A stretch of DNA of 64,000 nt from Mustelus asterias (Eukaryota), in the NCBI RefSeq assembly GCF_964213995.1, contig NC_135805.1:96162001-96226000 (forward strand), read 5' to 3'. The notes beneath the pieces were generated by a model. The model had not been told where the DNA came from. It worked only from the letters and a program-made list of their open reading frames with translations, and did not search any database. The position numbers and the translations under genes are program-made. Below, piece by piece: positions 8,422-63,049 of the stretch (position 1 is the stretch's first letter; each line of letters starts with the position of its first letter).

Positions 8422-9604
8422 GTTTGATAAGGTGCCCCATAAAAGGCTGCTGAAGAAGATTAGGGCACACGGAGTTGGGGGTAGTGTGTTAAAGTGGATT
8501 GGGGACTGGCTATCCGACAGGAAGCAGAGAGTCGGAATAAATGGGTGTTTTTCCGGTTGGAGGAAGGTAACTAGTGGCGTGCCGCAGGGATCGGTACTCG
8601 GGCCGCAACTGTTTATCATTTATATAGATGATCTGGAGGAGGGGACGGAGTGTAGGGTAACGAAGTTTGCAGACGACACAAAGATAAGTGGAAAAGTGAA
8701 TCGTGTGGAGGACGGAGAAGATCTGCAGAGAGATTTGGACAGGCTGAGTGAGTGGGCGAGGATATGGCAAATGGAGTATAACGTTGAGAAGTGCGAGGTT
8801 ATACACTTTGGAGGAAATAATAACAAATGGGATTACTATCTCAATGGAAACAAATTAAAACATGCTACCGTGCAAAGGGACCTGGGGGTCCTTGTGCATG
8901 AGACGCAAAAGCCCAGTCTGCAGGTACAACAGGTGATCAAGAAGGCAAATGGGATGTTGGCCTATATTGCGAGGGGGATGGAATATAAAAGCAGGGATGT
9001 CTTGATGCACCTGTACAGGGCATTGGTGAGGCCGCAGCTGGGATACTGTGTGCAGTATTGGTCCCCTTATATGAGGAAGGATGTATTGGCATTGGAGGGA
9101 GTGCAGAGAAGGTTCACCAGGTTGATACCGGAGATGAGGGGTTTGGATTATGAGGAGAGGCTGAGGAGATTGGGTTTGTACTCGTTGGAGTTTAGAAGGA
9201 TGAGGAGGGATCTTATGGAGACTTATAAGATAATGCGGGGGCTGGATAGGGTGGAGGCGGAGAGATTCTTTCCACTTAGTAAGGAAGTTAAAACTAGAGG
9301 ACACAGCCTCAAAATAAAGGGGGGTCGGTTTAAGACAGAGTTGAGGAGGAACTTCTTCTCCCAGAGGGTGGTGAATCTCTGGAATTCTCTGCCCACTGAG
9401 GTGGTGGAGGCTACCTCGCTGAATATGTTTAAAGCGCGGATGGATGGATTCCTGATCGGTAAGGGAATTAAGGGTTATGGGGATCAGGCGGGTAAGTGGT
9501 ACTGATCCACGTCAGATCAGCCATGATCTTATTGAATGGCGGGGCAGGCTCGAGGGGCTAGATGGCCTACTCCTGCTCCTATTTCTTATGTTCTTATGTT
9601 CTTA
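8422..9604 (+). mobile_element. Young 5'-truncated CR1 LINE
   Basis: Open RT C-terminal frame, 3' UTR and (TTCTTATG)n tail; near-identical to the reverse complement of 15966-17146. Confidence 0.97.
8432..9505 (+). CDS. CR1 ORF2 C-terminal fragment (reverse transcriptase), no native start
   Basis: 357 aa open frame with GVPQGSVLGP, FADD, YCVQYWSP. Confidence 0.85.
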   Translation: MPHKRLLKKIRAHGVGGSVLKWIGDWLSDRKQRVGINGCFSGWRKVTSGVPQGSVLGPQLFIIYIDDLEEGTECRVTKFADDTKISGKVNRVEDGEDLQRDLDRLSEWARIWQMEYNVEKCEVIHFGGNNNKWDYYLNGNKLKHATVQRDLGVLVHETQKPSLQVQQVIKKANGMLAYIARGMEYKSRDVLMHLYRALVRPQLGYCVQYWSPYMRKDVLALEGVQRRFTRLIPEMRGLDYEERLRRLGLYSLEFRRMRRDLMETYKIMRGLDRVEAERFFPLSKEVKTRGHSLKIKGGRFKTELRRNFFSQRVVNLWNSLPTEVVEATSLNMFKARMDGFLIGKGIKGYGDQAGKWY

Positions 9605-10846: not shown

Positions 10847-10879
10847 TTACCTGAAGATCACCCCTGGCATGGTGATTTC

Positions 10880-11105
10880 ACAGTCAGAAGTCTCACAACA
10901 CCAGGTTAAAGTCCAACAGGTTTATTTGGTAGCAAAAGCTACTAGCTTTCGGAGTGCTGCTCCTTCATCAGGTGAGTCACCTGATGAAGGAGCAGCACTC
11001 CGAAAGCTAGTGGCTTTTGCTACCAAATAAACCTGTTGAACTTTAACCTGGTGTTGTGAGACTTCTTACTGTGTTTACCCCAGTCCAACACCAGCATCTC
11101 CACAT
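10880..11105 (+). mobile_element. Miniature palindromic Penelope-like insertion carrying two hammerhead ribozymes
   Basis: About 195-bp near-perfect palindrome (10879-11073, centre 10976) plus an unpaired 3' tail; TSD CATGGTGATTTC at 10868-10879 and 11106-11117; homologous to the 3' end of the PLE at 62020-62146. Confidence 0.9.
10977..11013 (+). ncRNA. Minimal type I hammerhead ribozyme (mirror copy on the minus strand at 10939-10975)
   Basis: TCAC-CTGATGA-A-GGAG(cagca)CTCC-GAAA-GCTA-GTGG: core boxes, stem II, palindromic AGCT stem III, stem I TCAC/GTGG. Confidence 0.8.
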
Positions 11106-15965: not shown

Positions 15966-17378
15966 ATAAGAACATAAGAACATAAGAAATAGGAGCAGGA
16001 GTAGGCCATCTAGCCCCTCGAGCCTGCCCCGCCATTCAATAAGATCATGGCTGATCTGACGTGGATCAGTATCACTTACCCGCCTGATCCCCATAACCCT
16101 TAATTCCCTTACCGATCAGGAATCCATCCATCCGCGCTTTAAACATATTCAGCGAGGTAGCCTCCACCACCTCAGTGGGCAGAGAATTCCAGAGATTCAC
16201 CACCCTCTGGGAGAAGAAGTTCCTCCTCAACTCTGTCTTAAACCGACCCCCCTTTATTTTGAGGCTGTGTCCTCTAGTTTTAACTTCCTTACTAAGTGGA
16301 AAGAATCTCTCCGCCTCCACCCTATCCAGCCCCCGCATTATCTTATAAGTCTCCATAAGATCCCCCCTCATCCTTCTAAACTCCAACGAGTACAAACCCA
16401 ATCTCCTCAGCCTCTCCTCATAATCCAAACCCCTCATCTCCGGTATCAACTTGGTGAACCTTCTCTGCACTCCCTCCAATGCCAATATATCCTTCCTCAT
16501 ATAAGGGGACCAATACTGCACACAGTATCCCAGCTGCGGCCTCACCAATGCCCTGTACAGGTGCATCAAGACATCCCTGCTTTTATATTCTATCCCCCTC
16601 GCGATATAGGCCAACATCCCATTTGCCTTCTTGATCACCTGTTGTACCTGCAGACTGGGCTTTTGCGTCTCATGCACAAGGACCCCCAGGTCCCTTTGCA
16701 CGGTAGCATGTTTTAATTTGTTTCCATTGAGATAGTAATCCCATTTGTTATTATTTCCTCCAAAGTGTATAACCTCGCACTTCTCAACGTTATACTCCAT
16801 TTGCCATATCCTCGCCCACTCACTCAGCCTGTCCAAATCTCTCTGCAGATCTTCTCCGTCCTCCACACGATTCACTTTTCCACTTATCTTTGTGTCGTCT
16901 GCAAACTTCGTTACCCTACACTCCGTCCCCTCCTCCAGATCATCTATATAAATGGTAAATAGTTGCGGCCCGAGTACCGATCCCTGCGGCACGCCACTAG
17001 TTACCTTCCTCCAACCGGAAAAACACCCATTTATTCCGACTCTTTGCTTCCTGTCGGAGAGCCAGTCCCCAATCCACTTTAACACACTACCCCCAACTCC
17101 GTGTGCCCTAATCTTCTTCAGCAGCCTTTTATGGGGCACCTTATCAAACGCCTTTTGGAAATCCAAAAACACCGCATCCACCGGTTCTCCTCCATCAACC
17201 GCCCTAGTCACATCTTCATAAAAATCCAACATGTTCGTCAAGCACGACTTTCCCCTCATGAATCCATGCTGCGTCTGATTGATCGAACCATTTCTATCCA
17301 GATGCCCTGCTATCTCCTCTTTAATAATGGATTCCAGCATTTTCCCTACTACAGACGTTAAGCTGACCGGCCTATAGT
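15966..17378 (-). mobile_element. Young 5'-truncated CR1 LINE, same subfamily as 8422-9604
   Basis: Open RT frame; (CATAAGAA)n tail on the plus strand. Confidence 0.97.
16072..17340 (-). CDS. CR1 ORF2 fragment (RT domain to C-terminus)
   Basis: 422 aa open frame: QHGFMRGKSCLTN, DFQKAFDKV, FADD. Confidence 0.85.
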   Translation of the reverse strand: MLESIIKEEIAGHLDRNGSINQTQHGFMRGKSCLTNMLDFYEDVTRAVDGGEPVDAVFLDFQKAFDKVPHKRLLKKIRAHGVGGSVLKWIGDWLSDRKQRVGINGCFSGWRKVTSGVPQGSVLGPQLFTIYIDDLEEGTECRVTKFADDTKISGKVNRVEDGEDLQRDLDRLSEWARIWQMEYNVEKCEVIHFGGNNNKWDYYLNGNKLKHATVQRDLGVLVHETQKPSLQVQQVIKKANGMLAYIARGIEYKSRDVLMHLYRALVRPQLGYCVQYWSPYMRKDILALEGVQRRFTKLIPEMRGLDYEERLRRLGLYSLEFRRMRGDLMETYKIMRGLDRVEAERFFPLSKEVKTRGHSLKIKGGRFKTELRRNFFSQRVVNLWNSLPTEVVEATSLNMFKARMDGFLIGKGIKGYGDQAGK

Positions 17379-45648: not shown

Positions 45649-46319
45649 ATAAGAACATAAGAACATAAGAAATAGGAGCAGGAGTAGGCCATCTAGCCCC
45701 TCGAGCCTGCCCCGCCATTCAATAAGATCATGGCTGATCTGAAGTGGATCAGTTCCACTTACCCGCCTGATCCCCATAACCCCTAATTCCCTTACCGATC
45801 AGGAATCCATCTATCCGTGATTTAAACATATTCAACGAGGTAGCCTCCACCACTTCAGTGGGCAGAGAATTCCAGAGATTCACCACCCTCTGAGAGAAGA
45901 AGTTCCTCCTCAACTCTGTCCTAAACTGACCCCCCTTTATTTTGAGGCTGTGCCCTCTAGTTCTAGTTTCCTTTCTAAGTGGAAAGAATCTCTCCACCTC
46001 TATCCTATCCAGCCCCTTCATTACCTTATAGGTCTCTATAAGATCCCCCCTCAGCCTTCTAAATTCCAACGAGTACAAACCCAATCTGGTCAGTCTCTCC
46101 TCATAATCAACACCCCTCATCTCTGGTATCAACCTGGTGAACCTTCTCTGCACTCCCTCCAAGGCCAATATATCCTTCCGCAAATAAGGGGACCAATACT
46201 GCACACAGTATTCCAGCTGCGGCCTCACCAATGCCCTGTACAGATGCAGCAAGACATCTCTGCTTTTATATTCTATCCCCCTTGCGATATAGACCAACAT
46301 CCCATTTGCCTTCTTGATC
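45649..46319 (-). mobile_element. CR1 3' fragment, sister subfamily of 8422-9604
   Basis: 183 aa open frame; same 3' UTR and (CATAAGAA)n tail. Confidence 0.95.
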
Positions 46320-52619: not shown

Positions 52620-53560
52620 CTTTAGTCCTCACTGGCACCCAGCTGTCATCTGTGGCTCTAAGGGATTATTTGCATGCAACAGCCACCAAATCTTGAACCT
52701 GCAACCCCAAATACTGAAGTCACAGTTTTTCATTCATTCATCTGGCTTTCATTCATCTGAAGTAACGATGGACCTTGGCAACCCAAATCAACTGAACCGT
52801 TCTAGTCAGGATCACACTGCTCACCTCCATGGCAGAAGGAAGGATCTGGAACAGGTGCCCAAAAACATTGTCTGCTACATTTACCCTGGCCAATTTACCA
52901 TGACTGACAGGGATCCTGTTAAAGTCGTCAAACAATACATATGAAGAAGACAGAGGTAACATCGCTTACCATTGGTATGTGGAACACACAAATGCTCATG
53001 CTCTATGCCAGAGCTGGCAGACCAGAGGCGAACAACCCTGCTTGGGAGAAATCTTGTAAGAGTTTTAACAACACCAGGTTAAAGTCCAACAGGTTTATTT
53101 GGTAGCAAATGCCAAATGGCATTTGCTACCAAATAAACCTGTTGGACTTTAACCTGGTGTTGTTAAAACTCTTACTGTGTTTACCCCAGTCAAATGCCGG
53201 CATCTCCACATCATGGGAGAAATCTTTCCAGATACAGCATGTATGTAGCAGCATTGAGTGAGACTTGACTCACCTAGAATGAAGGGTAAATTAGTGGAAC
53301 TGGAACTTGATGCAGCTTATTCTGCTGCAGTGGCAGTAGCAAAGAGCATCATGAAGCAGGAATAGGGCTGTCCTCAAACTTGCCAGCCTTCCCAAAGGCA
53401 AAACTCACTGCCTCATGACATTGCAGCTTTCCCTCACAGTGAAAAATCATGTCACCATTGTTCGTGCTAACGCACTCAGGATGTCAAATTCTGAAATGTA
53501 TGAAGAGTTAAAATCTTTGATTGCTGCAGTGCCAAGATCAGACAATCTCATCAGCGCAGA
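52620..53560 (+). mobile_element. RTE (BovB-like) LINE 5' fragment, endonuclease region
   Basis: LTIGMWN, RPE/RRTTLLGR, VAALSET, LMTLQL...TIVRANA...LIAAVPRSDNLI. Confidence 0.75.
53056..53213 (+). mobile_element. Miniature palindromic PLE insertion without the ribozyme core
   Basis: 120-bp palindrome 53056-53175 (loop AA at 53115-53116) plus tail; perfect TSD TGGGAGAAATCTT (53043-53055, 53214-53226). Confidence 0.9.
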
Positions 53561-54064: not shown

Positions 54065-54155
54065 GTAAGAAGTCAAATAAACCTGTTGGACTTTAACCTG
54101 GTGTTGTGAGACTTCTTACTGTGCTTACCCAAGTCCAACGCCGGCATCTCCACAT
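54065..54155 (+). mobile_element. Very short PLE insertion with a roughly 10-bp inverted arm
   Basis: GTAAGAAGTC inverted arm, then PLE 3' end; TSD CTTGTTA(C/G)TGCCA (54052-54064, 54156-54168). Confidence 0.85.
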
Positions 54156-56149
54156 CTTGTTAGTGCCACACAGTGAGTGAGGTTGGCCCAGCACTTGCCG
54201 GCATGCAGTCTGCATCTGGACCCTCAAGGACAGGGGTTGCTCAATGCCACCCACAACAGCCATCTGAAGTGCCCTTAGTGGAAGTTGAGCAATTGTATGT
54301 TCCATCTTCCAAACTGTAGAGAACAAGAAGCATTTTGTAAGAGTACCCAGGATTCGTTAAAAAACCCAAAAAGTAGGCATTAGGAAACTTCAATGGCTGA
54401 TATAATTGATAAAATACACAGATGGAATTGTGTTTTTTGACGTTTTTTTGTTATTCTGAATCTCATGTTAGTGTTAATATTGATGATGAAGTGAAGGCAA
54501 AACCCTCAAAGCTATAATGAGGCAGGCAGTCAGATGGTAGTAGTAGGGACAGTGTTTACAATGATTGTGGTGCTGTCAATGTATGGGGAATGGGATGGAT
54601 TGTTTATGTGTGACACTGTTGGATGAGCCACTCTCTGAGAACTCGGGTAGCTAGGGATGCTAATGGTAGATGTTGCTTTTGATCATCTGCCTCTGGCAGC
54701 CCAGCTGGTGGCAAGAGTTAGCCCCTCATTGTGGCAAAGTTGTGGAGCATGCAACCAGAAATTGGGGAAGTGGAATTCCTTCTCATTCCCATGATGGGGC
54801 ACAAAAAGATATGGATGAAATCTATGGTACCATGGACCTTGGAATGTGAGTGAAGAATTGTGTACTCTGGCATTGCTTCACTCTACCCATTGGGAAAGAG
54901 ATGCATGTATTTACTTTGACATAAAGCACTTCGGCGACCTCCTTGCTAAAATGGTGACTACTTTAGGTTAAATCTAATTGACTGGAATACATTGCGGCTG
55001 CAATCAACATAAGATATTCTGCAAAGTCTGAAATTATTATTCATACCTCATCAAATGCAAGAAGAGATAATTTTAGATAATAGAGCACTGTGTTCATGCT
55101 CTGGGTTTTAATGCATTTGCAAAATCATATGGATTGTTCACATTTTGAACTGCTTTAAGTATGTGTGAAGTAATGACAGAAAGAGAGGGCAAGCTAAAAA
55201 GAACCTGCTTATGGAAGTTGAAGGATCCATTTGATCTCCAGTCAGACTCCGAATTGATACAGCGCAGCTCAGTGAAATGAACAAAGCCTTTTCGCTTTCT
55301 ATTTCAACTCACCTGGCAAGATTTTTTTTGTTAATTTGTGAACCTCCTGTCGACTCTCCTTTAGATTTCTGGTTTATAAGTTGTGTTGTGAGTTCCTTTA
55401 ATTGAGCTCTGAATTGTCAGAGCAGGTTTCCATGTAGCTGGATCATCCTGGCAGTGCAGTCAAGCTAAAAACTAGTTACCTTTACAACAAATCTGGCTGA
55501 GTGCCTGTGGTATCAATCTTCATTGAAACTGGGTGTGCAGTACCTTATTATCAACTATCAGCCTGCTAAAGGTACTTTCTATTAACTAAGTACTTCTAAT
55601 TTAAATTTCTGCACCTTTCAGCAAACACTGGCCAATTAATTCTGATAACCTTTGTACTCACATGACTAATATATTCATACAGAATGTTATCCTACAATCT
55701 TATGACATGAATAACGTTTGGCTGATGTTTGAGTATTTTCCAATAAAATAATTTGAAGGCAAAATTAAAAGGTTATACCATATAAATATCTCTTCACGCT
55801 TATGTTTATTGACAATTTTCACTATTTTGCTGAATGCTATGTTTTGAATATCTTCTGGCCTTTCATCCTCATTTTGTATTTGCATTTTGTGGCAGTGTTG
55901 TTTGTGCACTTGTGATCCTCTGTTGAACAATAAGGCAAATGTAACTTCTCCTTTCGTACACGGGGAAATTATGATGACCATTCATTTATCTTGTAAATTC
56001 CTTCAAAATATACGGTAATAATACAAGAATTGTTAAAACTAATTAGAGCAACTGTTCATGTCATATCCTCCACATTGAAAACTTTGGCAATTATAAGAAG
56101 GCTCTTTGTTACATTGCCCTGGATAATACAATCGTGAAATTCAGCAAGG

Positions 56150-59817: not shown

Positions 59818-61055
59818 TCAGACTGTACCAGCCAGGCAGGCTGTTGTCCCACTCACTGATCACCTATTTATGTTACACACCACACCCAACACTGATCCTG
59901 TTGGAATTGTTTGGAGAAATTTTAATATTTACTTGTCAGATTTTAAGGAAAAATGTTCATTACCTTTGTTTTGGACAGTGGTGCAAATGGGGGCCTGTAA
60001 TTGAACTGAATATCAGGTACTGGGCAGTCAATCCAATATCACCCATTTTATATCACTGCCCAAGACAAACTTTTACCCCAGGATCTGATAGCAAACCAAT
60101 TATTTCATTAGATGTTAAATGCCATTGTTGCTCAAAGTCGACTTTGGTTACGACAGTGTATGACTTTTTAGTTAAACTATTTAAATAATAATGTGCTCGG
60201 TGAATTCCATATCTATGGGCTAGAAATCATTCCGTTATGATTTGCGACCTGGCTGCACCAATTGTCATGGAGGCAGTCTGCACAAAATTATTTGTGTTGC
60301 CTCCTTTACCTGACAGCATTGGTCCATTTGGAGATCTGCTCTACCAACCTCTTACACTGCTCAGTGCATTCACATCACACAACTTTCCCAGTGTGGGTGC
60401 TGTGCAGTTGTGTTGGAAGCTCTGCACGCCTCACATGGAGGGCATTGGACTTCCATAGCTTTGGCTCCCGTCATGCTGTAGATTAAAATTTCATGCCCTG
60501 TGTATTGAACAAAGCAAGAAGTCTCACAACACCAGGTTAAAGTCCAACAGGTTTATTTGGTAGCAAATACCATAAGCTTTCGGAGCGCTGCTCCTTCGTC
60601 AGATGGAGTGGAAATGTGCTCTCAAACAGGGCACAGAGACACAGAAATCAAGTTACAGAATACTAATTAGAATGCGAATCCCTACAGCCAGCCAGGTCTT
60701 AAAGGTACAGACAATGTGGGTGGAGGGAGCATTAAACACACGTTAAAGAGATGTGTATTGTCTCCAGACAGAACAGCTAGTGAGATTCTGCAAGTCCAGG
60801 GGGCAAGCTGTGGGGGTTACTGATAACGTGACATAAATCCAACATCCCGGTTTAGGCCGTCCTCATGTGTGCGGAACTTGGCTATCAGTTTCTGCTCAGC
60901 GACTCTGCGCTGTCGTGTGTCGTGAAGGCCGCCTTGGAGAACGCTTACCTGAAGATCCAAGGCTGAATGCAGTTTTTCGCTGTGGCGCGTCAGAACTGTT
61001 GATCGATGAGTCGAGCGCCATATCCTGTTCTTATGAGGGCATCTTTCAGCCTCTG

Positions 61056-61808
61056 GATGCCCTCATAAGAACAGGATATGACGCTCGACTCATCGATCAA
61101 CAGTTCCGACGCACCACAGTGAAAAACCGCACCGACCTCCTCAGAAGACAAACACGGGACACGGTGGACAGAGTACCCTTCGTCGTCCAGTACATCCCCG
61201 GAGCGGAGAAGCTACGGCATCTCCTCCGGAGTCTTCAACATGTCATTGATGAAGACGAACATCTCGCCAAGGCCATCCCCACACCCCCACTTCTTGCCTT
61301 CAAACAACCACGCAACCTCAAACAGACCATTGTCCGTAGCAAACTACCCAGCCTTCAGGAGAACAGTGACCACGACACCACACAACCCTGCCACAGCAAC
61401 CTCTGCAAGACGTGCCGGATCATCGACACGGATGCCATCATCTCACGTGAGAACACCATCTACCAGGTACACGGTACCTACTCTTGCAACTCGGCCAACG
61501 TTGTCTGCCTGATACGGTGCAGGAAAGGATGTCCTGAGACATGGTACATTGGGGAAACCATGCAGACGCTACGACAACGGATGAATGAACACCGCTCGAC
61601 AATCACCAGGCAAGACTGTTCTCTTCCTGTGGGGGAGCACTTCAGCAGTCACTGGCATTCAGCCTTGGATCTTCAGGTAAGCGTTCTCCAAGGCGGCCTT
61701 CACGACACACGACAGCGCAGAGTCGCTGAGCAGAAACTGATAGCCAAGTTCCGCACACATGAGGATGGCCTAAACCGGGATGTTGGATTTATGTCACGTT
61801 ATCAGTAA
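61056..61808 (+). CDS. PLE ORF C-terminus: RT thumb end, Cys-rich linker, GIY-YIG endonuclease
   Basis: PCHSNLCKTC linker, NVVCLIRC..WYIGETMQTLRQRMNEH, EHF, EQKLI..DGLN; the first 63 aa of the ORF-track call come from the inverted arm. Confidence 0.9.
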   Translation, partial: DALIRTGYDARLIDQQFRRTTVKNRTDLLRRQTRDTVDRVPFVVQYIPGAEKLRHLLRSLQHVIDEDEHLAKAIPTPPLLAFKQPRNLKQTIVRSKLPSLQENSDHDTTQPCHSNLCKTCRIIDTDAIISRENTIYQVHGTYSCNSANVVCLIRCRKGCPETWYIGETMQTLRQRMNEHRSTITRQDCSLPVGEHFSSHWHSALDLQVSVLQGGLHDTRQRRVAEQKLIAKFRTHEDGLNRDVGFMSRYQ

Positions 61809-62018
61809 CCCCCACAGCTTGCCCCCTGGACTTGCAGAATCTCACTAGCTGTTCTGTCTGGAGACAATACACATCTCTTTAACGTGTGTTTAATGCTCCC
61901 TCCACCCACATTGTCTGTACCTTTAAGACCTGGTTGGTTGTAGAGATTCGCATTCTAATTAGTATTCTGTAACTTGATTTCTGTGCCTCTGTGCCCTGTT
62001 TGAGAGCACATTTCCACT

Positions 62019-62055
62019 CCATCTGACGAAGGAGCAGCGCTCCGAAAGCTTATGG
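62019..62055 (+). ncRNA. Minimal type I hammerhead ribozyme (mirror copy on the minus strand at 60570-60606)
   Basis: CCAT-CTGACGA-A-GGAGC(agc)GCTCC-GAAA-GCTT-ATGG; stems I and II pair perfectly. Confidence 0.85.
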
Positions 62056-63049
62056 TATTTGCTACCAAATAAACCTGTTGGACTTTAACCTGGTGTTGTG
62101 AGACTTCTTACTGTGTTCACCCCAGTCCAACGCCGACATCTCCACATATTGAACAAAGCCACATACTTATAACACTCTTATGGAAATTTGAAGATATTTT
62201 CAGATGTCATTGATATTTCTAATCACTACGTCTAAATTTGAAAAGTAAGCATTTTTAAAATCGTTTACATAAAATTTAGGATAGATCTTTCAATAAAAAA
62301 ACTATCAACTTGAAAACTTAGAGATCTGATTCTGAAAGACACCAACATCGCCTCCCCCCAACTTTATTAAATTTTTCTCCCTCACTTGAAAGTAGTACTT
62401 GCTCGTTATAGCAAAATTTAAATGTGCATTAGCAGCAATATTCTCATCAAATGTGACATTCTTAATGCAAATCTAAATATTCACGACTTATTTCCCTCTG
62501 GAAGCATCTCAACATAATGTAATCGGGTCCTCACATTACGTGCATGCTCTTCTGTTTTTCAGCAAATAACGGAAAGTAGTTGATATTTTCCCCCTCTGAC
62601 CTGGAAATGCAGAGCATAGATGTAATACGCTGACTGAATTGAATAAACTCAGAACAGACCAGAGTCATAGCATTCTGACAGCAGATCAGGATTCCTCAAA
62701 TTGATGGTAGATTGATCACAGATTAGAATGACCTTTAACAAATAGGATTCATGCTTTTTTAAGCAAGTGCTGCTTTTGATGAAGTGATCACAAGGATGTA
62801 TATCCACACATTGTAGGAGACACGGTAGCAGATGTCCAAATCTGTTGTATGAATGGAAAAAGAAAACCAATAAGGTAAGCACACTTGGAATGGTTTTATA
62901 ATTGCTTTTTGAAGAATTAATCGATCCACCAAAATACAAGACTTGACTGCAAATCCACTGACACATTGTTGTATATTTGCCATGTCAAATGCATGTAACA
63001 CAGAATCATGGCCTGATTACAGAAGGAAATAATTTCTCCCATCATGTCT

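Follow-up and report, generated by a model that had tools for sequence, protein, structure and literature searches.

A head-to-head retrotransposon stub in Mustelus asterias that starts within about one nucleotide of a predicted hammerhead cleavage site

The stub and its relatives in the window

The window, by which we mean the whole 64-kb stretch of Mustelus asterias DNA analysed here, contains at 53056-53213 a stub of 158 bases made of two arms that face each other across a 2-nt centre, AA, at 53115-53116. The stub is a dead, target-duplicated, head-to-head retro-insertion; the arms pair without a mismatch, the insertion is bordered by a 13-bp duplication and the hairpin greatly exceeds chance expectation (z = -24). 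The sense arm is 98 nt long and its last base is the A of the ATG that probably opens the ORF, while the short inverted arm ends in the inner of two positions at which copies of this family terminate (+60 to +64). An Rfam search returned no hammerhead model and only generic miRNA-hairpin matches below the gathering score, which we dismissed.

Comparison with intact copies of the element places 53116 at element position +1, the first base 3′ of the predicted scissile bond, and shows that the inverted arm reaches +2. The initial annotation described a truncated copy of a Penelope-like element (PLE) with a sense arm that begins at the fold-back centre, within about 1 nt of the predicted bond, and both statements hold. 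The exact base is ambiguous. The stub bears the marker ATGG..TAAAA, and all 22 intact arms with that marker (22/22) have A at H17, the base before the bond; the A found at 53115 could accordingly represent element -1, and the start is either +1 or -1. The alignment put the stub's arm at -1. A single locus of this kind and its layout are ordinary, and one copy alone cannot prove ribozyme activity. The host sequence around the stub (window 52960-53270) reads like the decayed start of a LINE endonuclease, with a possible resemblance to an RTE-type motif.

Table 1 Features of the stub and of related insertions in the window
Feature	Position	Strand	Remarks
Left target-site duplication	53043..53055	.	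13 bp; same letters as 53214-53226
Short inverted arm	53056..53114	-	element +2 to +60, without tail; 59/59 complementary to 53117-53175
Junction A	53115..53115	.	H17 (-1) of the stub's subfamily, or an added or partner base
Long arm	53116..53213	+	+1 (first base 3′ of the predicted scissile bond) to +98; includes the ~37-nt tail
Right target-site duplication	53214..53226	.	initial TG also continues the element's ATG
Fold-back copy, centre upstream of ribozyme	10879..11105	+	hammerhead core kept in both arms
Simple truncated copy	54074..54159	+	start ~+15
Longer fold-back insertion	60506..62148	+	465-nt inverted arm and 1.2-kb sense arm; CX4CXXC linker; C-terminal GIY-YIG-type region 61131-61808
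Reference intact minimal type I hammerhead	62018..62055	+	stem I CCAT/ATGG, CUGACGA, stem II, GAAA, AGCU palindrome, H17 = U; predicted cut 62051|62052

Three further insertions of the same family lie in the window, and that at 10879-11105 was copied through an uncut site. The C-terminal fragment encoded by the longer copy at 60506-62148 gives a weak GIY-YIG match, under the Pfam cut-off (E = 0.013). Its identity to the C-terminal ends of proteins from sharks and elsewhere is 61-92%, and RVT_1 is present in two of these proteins. The fragment also contains the linker between reverse transcriptase (RT) and endonuclease (EN), CHSNLCKTC, and a CX2-5CxxC linker at this place is described for EN+ PLEs in the accessible text of PMC8557442. 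The stub's family shows the layout of EN+ PLEs, namely an inverted 5′-truncated copy, a one-sided tail and a target-site duplication (TSD). As judged from these motifs, the element fits an abundant Neptune-type EN+ Penelope-like retrotransposon. A 24-nt anchor has 187,064 matches in the 3.68-Gb genome (about 187,000 arms), and 5,067 loci genome-wide hold tight fold-backs. No intact ORF of the family was seen in the arms sampled. A scan of 1.6 Mb found no full-length element with a 5′ pLTR, so the tandem or circular nature of the template and the position of the ORF start are only inferred.

Fragments of the element's C-terminal region also sit in predicted isoforms of several shark host genes (P0004, P0008, P0010, P0011, P0014 and P0016), by exonisation or annotation error. 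Elsewhere in the window, young repeat copies that are 93-99% alike and lie in inverted orientation (8422-9604, 15967-17149 and 45650-46319) probably belong to a LINE family.

The predicted ribozyme and the ends of the copies

The intact copies read GAAAGCT-T^ATGG and GAAAGCT-A^GTGG, with the predicted bonds at 62051|62052 and 11009|11010; in standard hammerhead numbering the cut follows H17 (PMC4209133). The motifs occur in the order stem I (CCAT/ATGG or CAC/GTG), CUGANGA, an unpaired A, stem II (GGAGC/GCTCC), GAAA, the palindrome AGCU and H17. Using a parser that demanded the core letters (CUGANGA, GAAA and U) and left H17 free, we found that 149 of 243 sampled arms parse as hammerheads. H17 is U in 79 of these, A in 50, C in 20 and G in none. 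The first pair of stem I (I.1) is G-C in 90 arms and A-U in 48, a compensatory switch, pair II.3 is A-U in 86, G-U in 49 and G-C in 13, and positions 15.2/16.2 of the helix III palindrome are GC in 144/149. The minimum free energy of the ribozyme monomer is unremarkable (z about -0.5). The avoidance of G at H17 and the covariation in stem I mark the predicted ribozyme as being under selection. With its CUGANGA/GAAA/UH core, unpaired base before stem II, short stem I, palindromic helix III and subfamilies that differ by compensatory changes, it resembles published minimal PLE hammerheads, and element and ribozyme alike are further members of kinds already known.

The 3′ ends of the 243 arms fall into two modes, at +60 to +64 (84 arms) and at +96 to +103 (94 arms), and the same two modes appear whether the arms are long or short. 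Their positions agree with the pair of internal RT start sites demonstrated for the Anolis element (accessible text of PMC11167929). Long arms taper into an ATG-led, ORF-like continuation, which runs for 15 nt or more in two arms and is only loosely like the start of a full-length relative. The pLTR and tail of such elements include the first codons (accessible text of PMC3846280).

We mapped 5′ ends in an unselected sample, consisting of 1.6 Mb of one contig and 30 anchor loci, by alignment against intact arms. Most copies were made across an uncut ribozyme, since 178 of the 236 arms outside the window reach -33 or further and thus pass through essentially all of it; 155 extend beyond -45. 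Ten of the 236 arms end at -1 to +2, compared with 3.2 predicted by the local rate (p = 0.002). Ends also gather, less sharply, at -37 to -32, on the 5′ strand of stem I (15/236 against 6.3 expected, p = 0.002, for an interval chosen after the fact). This second cluster could come from cDNA folding back on stem I, from pausing of RT, or from a splice or start site; the 5′ end of helix I is where an intron ends in D. virilis (PMC4209133). By eye, about 24 of 50 tight fold-backs among the matches listed have an arm ending at +1 or -1. Genome-wide counts allowing two mismatches, over 45,313 ATGG-type arms, gave 838 for -1/+1, 420 for +3/+4 and 357 for -5/-4; this apparent 2-2.5-fold excess is contaminated by other subfamilies and by small indels in intact copies, and we do not use it as main evidence. 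Two further pattern searches, dominated by full-length copies of other subfamilies, were left out of the tallies.

The peak was then resolved by subfamily, using patterns that exclude intact copies through three mismatches at the AAA of GAAA. Tallies were made by eye on the first 100 rows, which come from the first contigs, and the null shares allow for chance matches. Among the first 100 of 1,018 matches of the young subfamily C (GCUU^GUGUGG), six loci of which were counted through both arms, starts at +1, -1, -2, -3 and -4 numbered 48, 14, 17, 7 and 14, so that +1 takes 48/100 against a null of 17% (p = 2e-12). In the rows with unique flanks, 14 of 31 start at +1 (p = 3e-4), and in five C rows the partner arm passes the cut. 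Scaled up roughly, C has about 49,000 arms in all, of which about 2,400 start at +1, compared with about 330 per adjacent base. Subfamily E gave 111 matches; after removal of 24 rows of another subfamily and 10 internal deletions from 100 rows, 27/66 start at +1 against a null of 12% (p = 4e-9), and 15/54 do so without about 12 junctions that show stem-I microhomology (p = 0.002). In E the predicted cut is 9 nt closer to the 3′ anchor than it is in C, and the peak at +1 despite this shift indicates that it tracks the ribozyme and not the distance from the end.

The peak is weakest in the stub's own subfamily. In the first 100 rows of its 313 matches, starts at +1, -1, -2, -3 and -4 number 25, 32, 13, 16 and 14. 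The +1 bin alone is not significant (25/100, p = 0.06), while +1 and -1 together hold 57/100 against 37% expected (p = 3e-5). After cleaning, with three deletions dropped and two rows moved, +1 has 21/97 and -1 has 31/97 (p = 0.24 for +1 alone and 6e-4 for +1 with -1), and the unique-flank rows are flat (about 10, 9, 7, 11 and 3). About 7 of the 16 rows starting at -3 adjoin TTCTATG-like simple repeats that share a few element bases, which may point to a target bias towards microsatellites. L287 and L288, two loci that lie on opposite strands at a distance of about 0.5 Mb, have an identical junction and flank, and such segmental duplicates can slightly inflate junction counts.

The initial annotation had asked whether 5′ ends across the family peak at the cleavage site or are spread uniformly. 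At the family level the peak is present (48/100 in C, 27/66 in E and 10/236 in the unselected sample), and a uniform distribution of truncation points is refuted.

Junctions at loci that start at +1

We fetched 20 subfamily C loci, hand-picked from those of the first 68 rows that start at +1. We passed over nine +1 rows whose flanks derive from the element; in three of these nine the partner arm passes the cut. Both arms halt within -1 to +3 in all ten fetched fold-backs that show both arms (10/10), and candidate TSDs of 9-14 bp are present at those ten. Two loci (L269 and L277) join +1 directly to +1, some have +2, one base and +1, the same layout as the stub, and in two others (L279 and L281) both arms stop at +1 with about 150 and about 100 nt of unrelated filler between them. 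A longer palindrome that lost its centre once inserted would not explain the filler-joined arms or the unique-flank ends, and we rejected this scenario as a general account; it may hold for single tight palindromes like the stub.

For the extra A, 20 ATGG loci were fetched, skipping rows that resembled small deletions. In copies whose marker implies H17 = U (U in 23/25 intact arms), an A precedes ATGG in five of seven non-palindromic junctions, one of the five being ambiguous, and a G in one of seven; in four further H17 = U junctions, all palindromes, the AT at +1/+2 is shared. Whichever base occupies H17, ATGG is thus often preceded by A; the A at 53115 may be untemplated, and its presence does not fix the end at -1.

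Junctions often contain repeated short copies of the first 5-13 nt past the cut site, as though RT had restarted several times at an RNA end (for example L300, L304 and L269). In the sampled arms, both arms of one insertion often carry identical private substitutions, hence one RNA or source locus for both.

A cut template and its alternatives

A few percent of sister copies begin exactly at the predicted cut, likely a fossil trace of the ribozyme working in living cells. We consider it probable that the stub belongs to a minority class, about 2-5% of arms, whose RNA template had been cleaved by the element's own hammerhead before copying; for the stub's own template, the balance tips slightly towards cut RNA. 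The initial annotation had read this one copy as fossil evidence of in vivo cleavage. The family peak gives that view a fair, indirect footing, while the stub's own subfamily, where +1 alone is not significant and unique-flank ends are flat, contributes least to it.

Such a stub would arise as follows. The element's endonuclease would nick both DNA strands about 13 bp apart, and RT would be primed at two internal RNA sites, at about +61 and about +99, the latter at the ORF start. On uncut tandem RNA, or on the re-ligated circular template proposed in PMC4209133, RT would cross the ribozyme and give longer copies, and on cut RNA it would run off at +1 after at most ~100 nt. Joining of the two cDNA ends would leave 0-2 bases added or shared, or a stretch of filler. 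With the cut upstream of the points of priming, copies of cut RNA would be abortive stubs, made from the long 3′ product that bears the ORF rather than from a 100-nt RNA.

The +1 end could instead mark where a pLTR promoter starts transcription, by coincidence at the scissile bond, so that the stubs would copy the 5′ end of a capped mRNA; we regard this as unlikely. A pyrimidine-purine start fits +1 in C, E and the H17 = U subfamilies and -1 in the H17 = A subfamily, in which -1 is the taller bin (32 vs 25), and a G precedes 8 of the 14 unique-flank +1 ends in C, as expected from a copied cap, for which L1 provides a precedent. PLE promoters are moreover located in pLTRs (accessible text of PMC6765202). 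However, C has G as its +1, so duplication of the terminal base accounts for the preceding G, as it does for the A before ATGG in H17 = U copies (5/7 A, 1/7 G), and a start exactly at the bond of a selected ribozyme is a coincidence that cleavage does not need.

We give a similarly low probability to an origin that involves no cut RNA, in which RT pausing at the ribozyme structure, snap-back of cDNA on stem I and short microhomologies focus junctions near +1. About 12 of the 27 E-subfamily +1 rows are indeed stem-I microhomology junctions, a junction with a 2-bp AT snap-back recurs in 6/50 rows among the matches listed, 5′ ends cluster at the 5′ strand of stem I, and palindromic centres occur at other self-complementary dinucleotides as well. 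If RT stalled at stem I, however, ends would be expected from +5 onwards, and if it stalled at an AGCU dimer helix, at -1/-2, whereas C peaks at +1; the peak also remains in unique-flank junctions and at loci where both arms stop at +1 across unrelated filler.

Very improbable is the proposal of the initial annotation that the template was a roughly 100-nt RNA, a minimal mobilisable 3′ cleavage product, here taken as an independent product of the terminal pLTR: the long arm does cover +1 to +98 and stubs of that kind are common (the 5,067 tight fold-backs), but the two 3′-end modes, ~+61 and ~+99, are the same across the sampled arms, long and short, the ends taper into the ATG-led continuation, the stubs are without a ribozyme and no junction lineage common to them was demonstrated, and in the accessible text of PMC11167929 RT initiates internally on a longer RNA and the Anolis protein requires RNA beyond its start sites.

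Preferring a cut template, we offer more tentatively a wider reading. The stubs may be a base-precise fossil record, by the thousand, of germ-line cleavage by metazoan PLE minimal hammerheads, with an efficiency that varies by subfamily with stem I strength. Cut linear RNA would then give abortive stubs only and productive copies would come from uncut tandem or re-ligated circular RNA, making the ribozyme a switch in the PLE cycle.

EN+ Neptune-type PLEs are known for an inverted 5′-truncated pLTR, a one-sided 30-40-bp tail and a TSD, and junction palindromes, too, have already been described (accessible text of PMC8557442 and PMC3846280). The present family shares with them the head-to-head inverted copy, the ~37-nt tail on one arm, TSDs of 9-14 bp, the CX4CXXC linker followed by a GIY-YIG-type C-terminus, and a pLTR and tail that run up to the ORF start. 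It differs in that junctions are not mapped to the ribozyme cut in the accessible text of those papers, where hammerhead function in EN+ PLEs is called unclear (PMC8557442). The accessible text searched contained no report of a junction peak at the cut site. Published minimal hammerheads are reported to have low in vitro activity and in vivo evidence is stated to be absent, whereas here there is a genomic footprint at the predicted bond; in vivo cutting by the minimal hammerheads of animal PLEs, and its purpose, are stated as open in PMC4209133 and the accessible text of PMC8557442.

Another close system is PAc, the Poseidon element from Anolis (Frangieh et al. 2024, accessible text of PMC11167929), in which two internal RT start sites bracket the tail, both strands are nicked, a hammerhead lies shortly upstream and most insertions come from uncut RNA. 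The PAc ORF begins inside the ribozyme, while here it probably begins about 98 nt past the cut. In the same text, no Anolis RNA-seq reads start or end at the cut site, and insertion in vitro did not need cleavage. With R2 and L1Tc, which have 5′ HDV-like ribozymes (accessible text of PMC6765202), the element has in common that a ribozyme cut would set the 5′ end of inserted copies; there, however, a full-length template is released by the cut, while in the present element the predicted cut is a short way upstream of where RT would be primed and would produce stubs; the element is not a member of that group. Nor is the stub a non-LTR retrozyme, defined by tandem units that each carry a hammerhead (accessible text of bioRxiv 10.64898/2026.07.22.740005), as it lacks the ribozyme core and is an inverted pair rather than a tandem.

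A junction peak at the scissile bond is a read-out from genome sequence alone and is applicable to any PLE-rich genome. It also yields a ranked prediction, that subfamily C cleaves better than subfamily A, which a simple in vitro assay can test. The predicted stem I is more stable in the subfamily with the strongest peak (-6.0 vs -2.6 kcal/mol).
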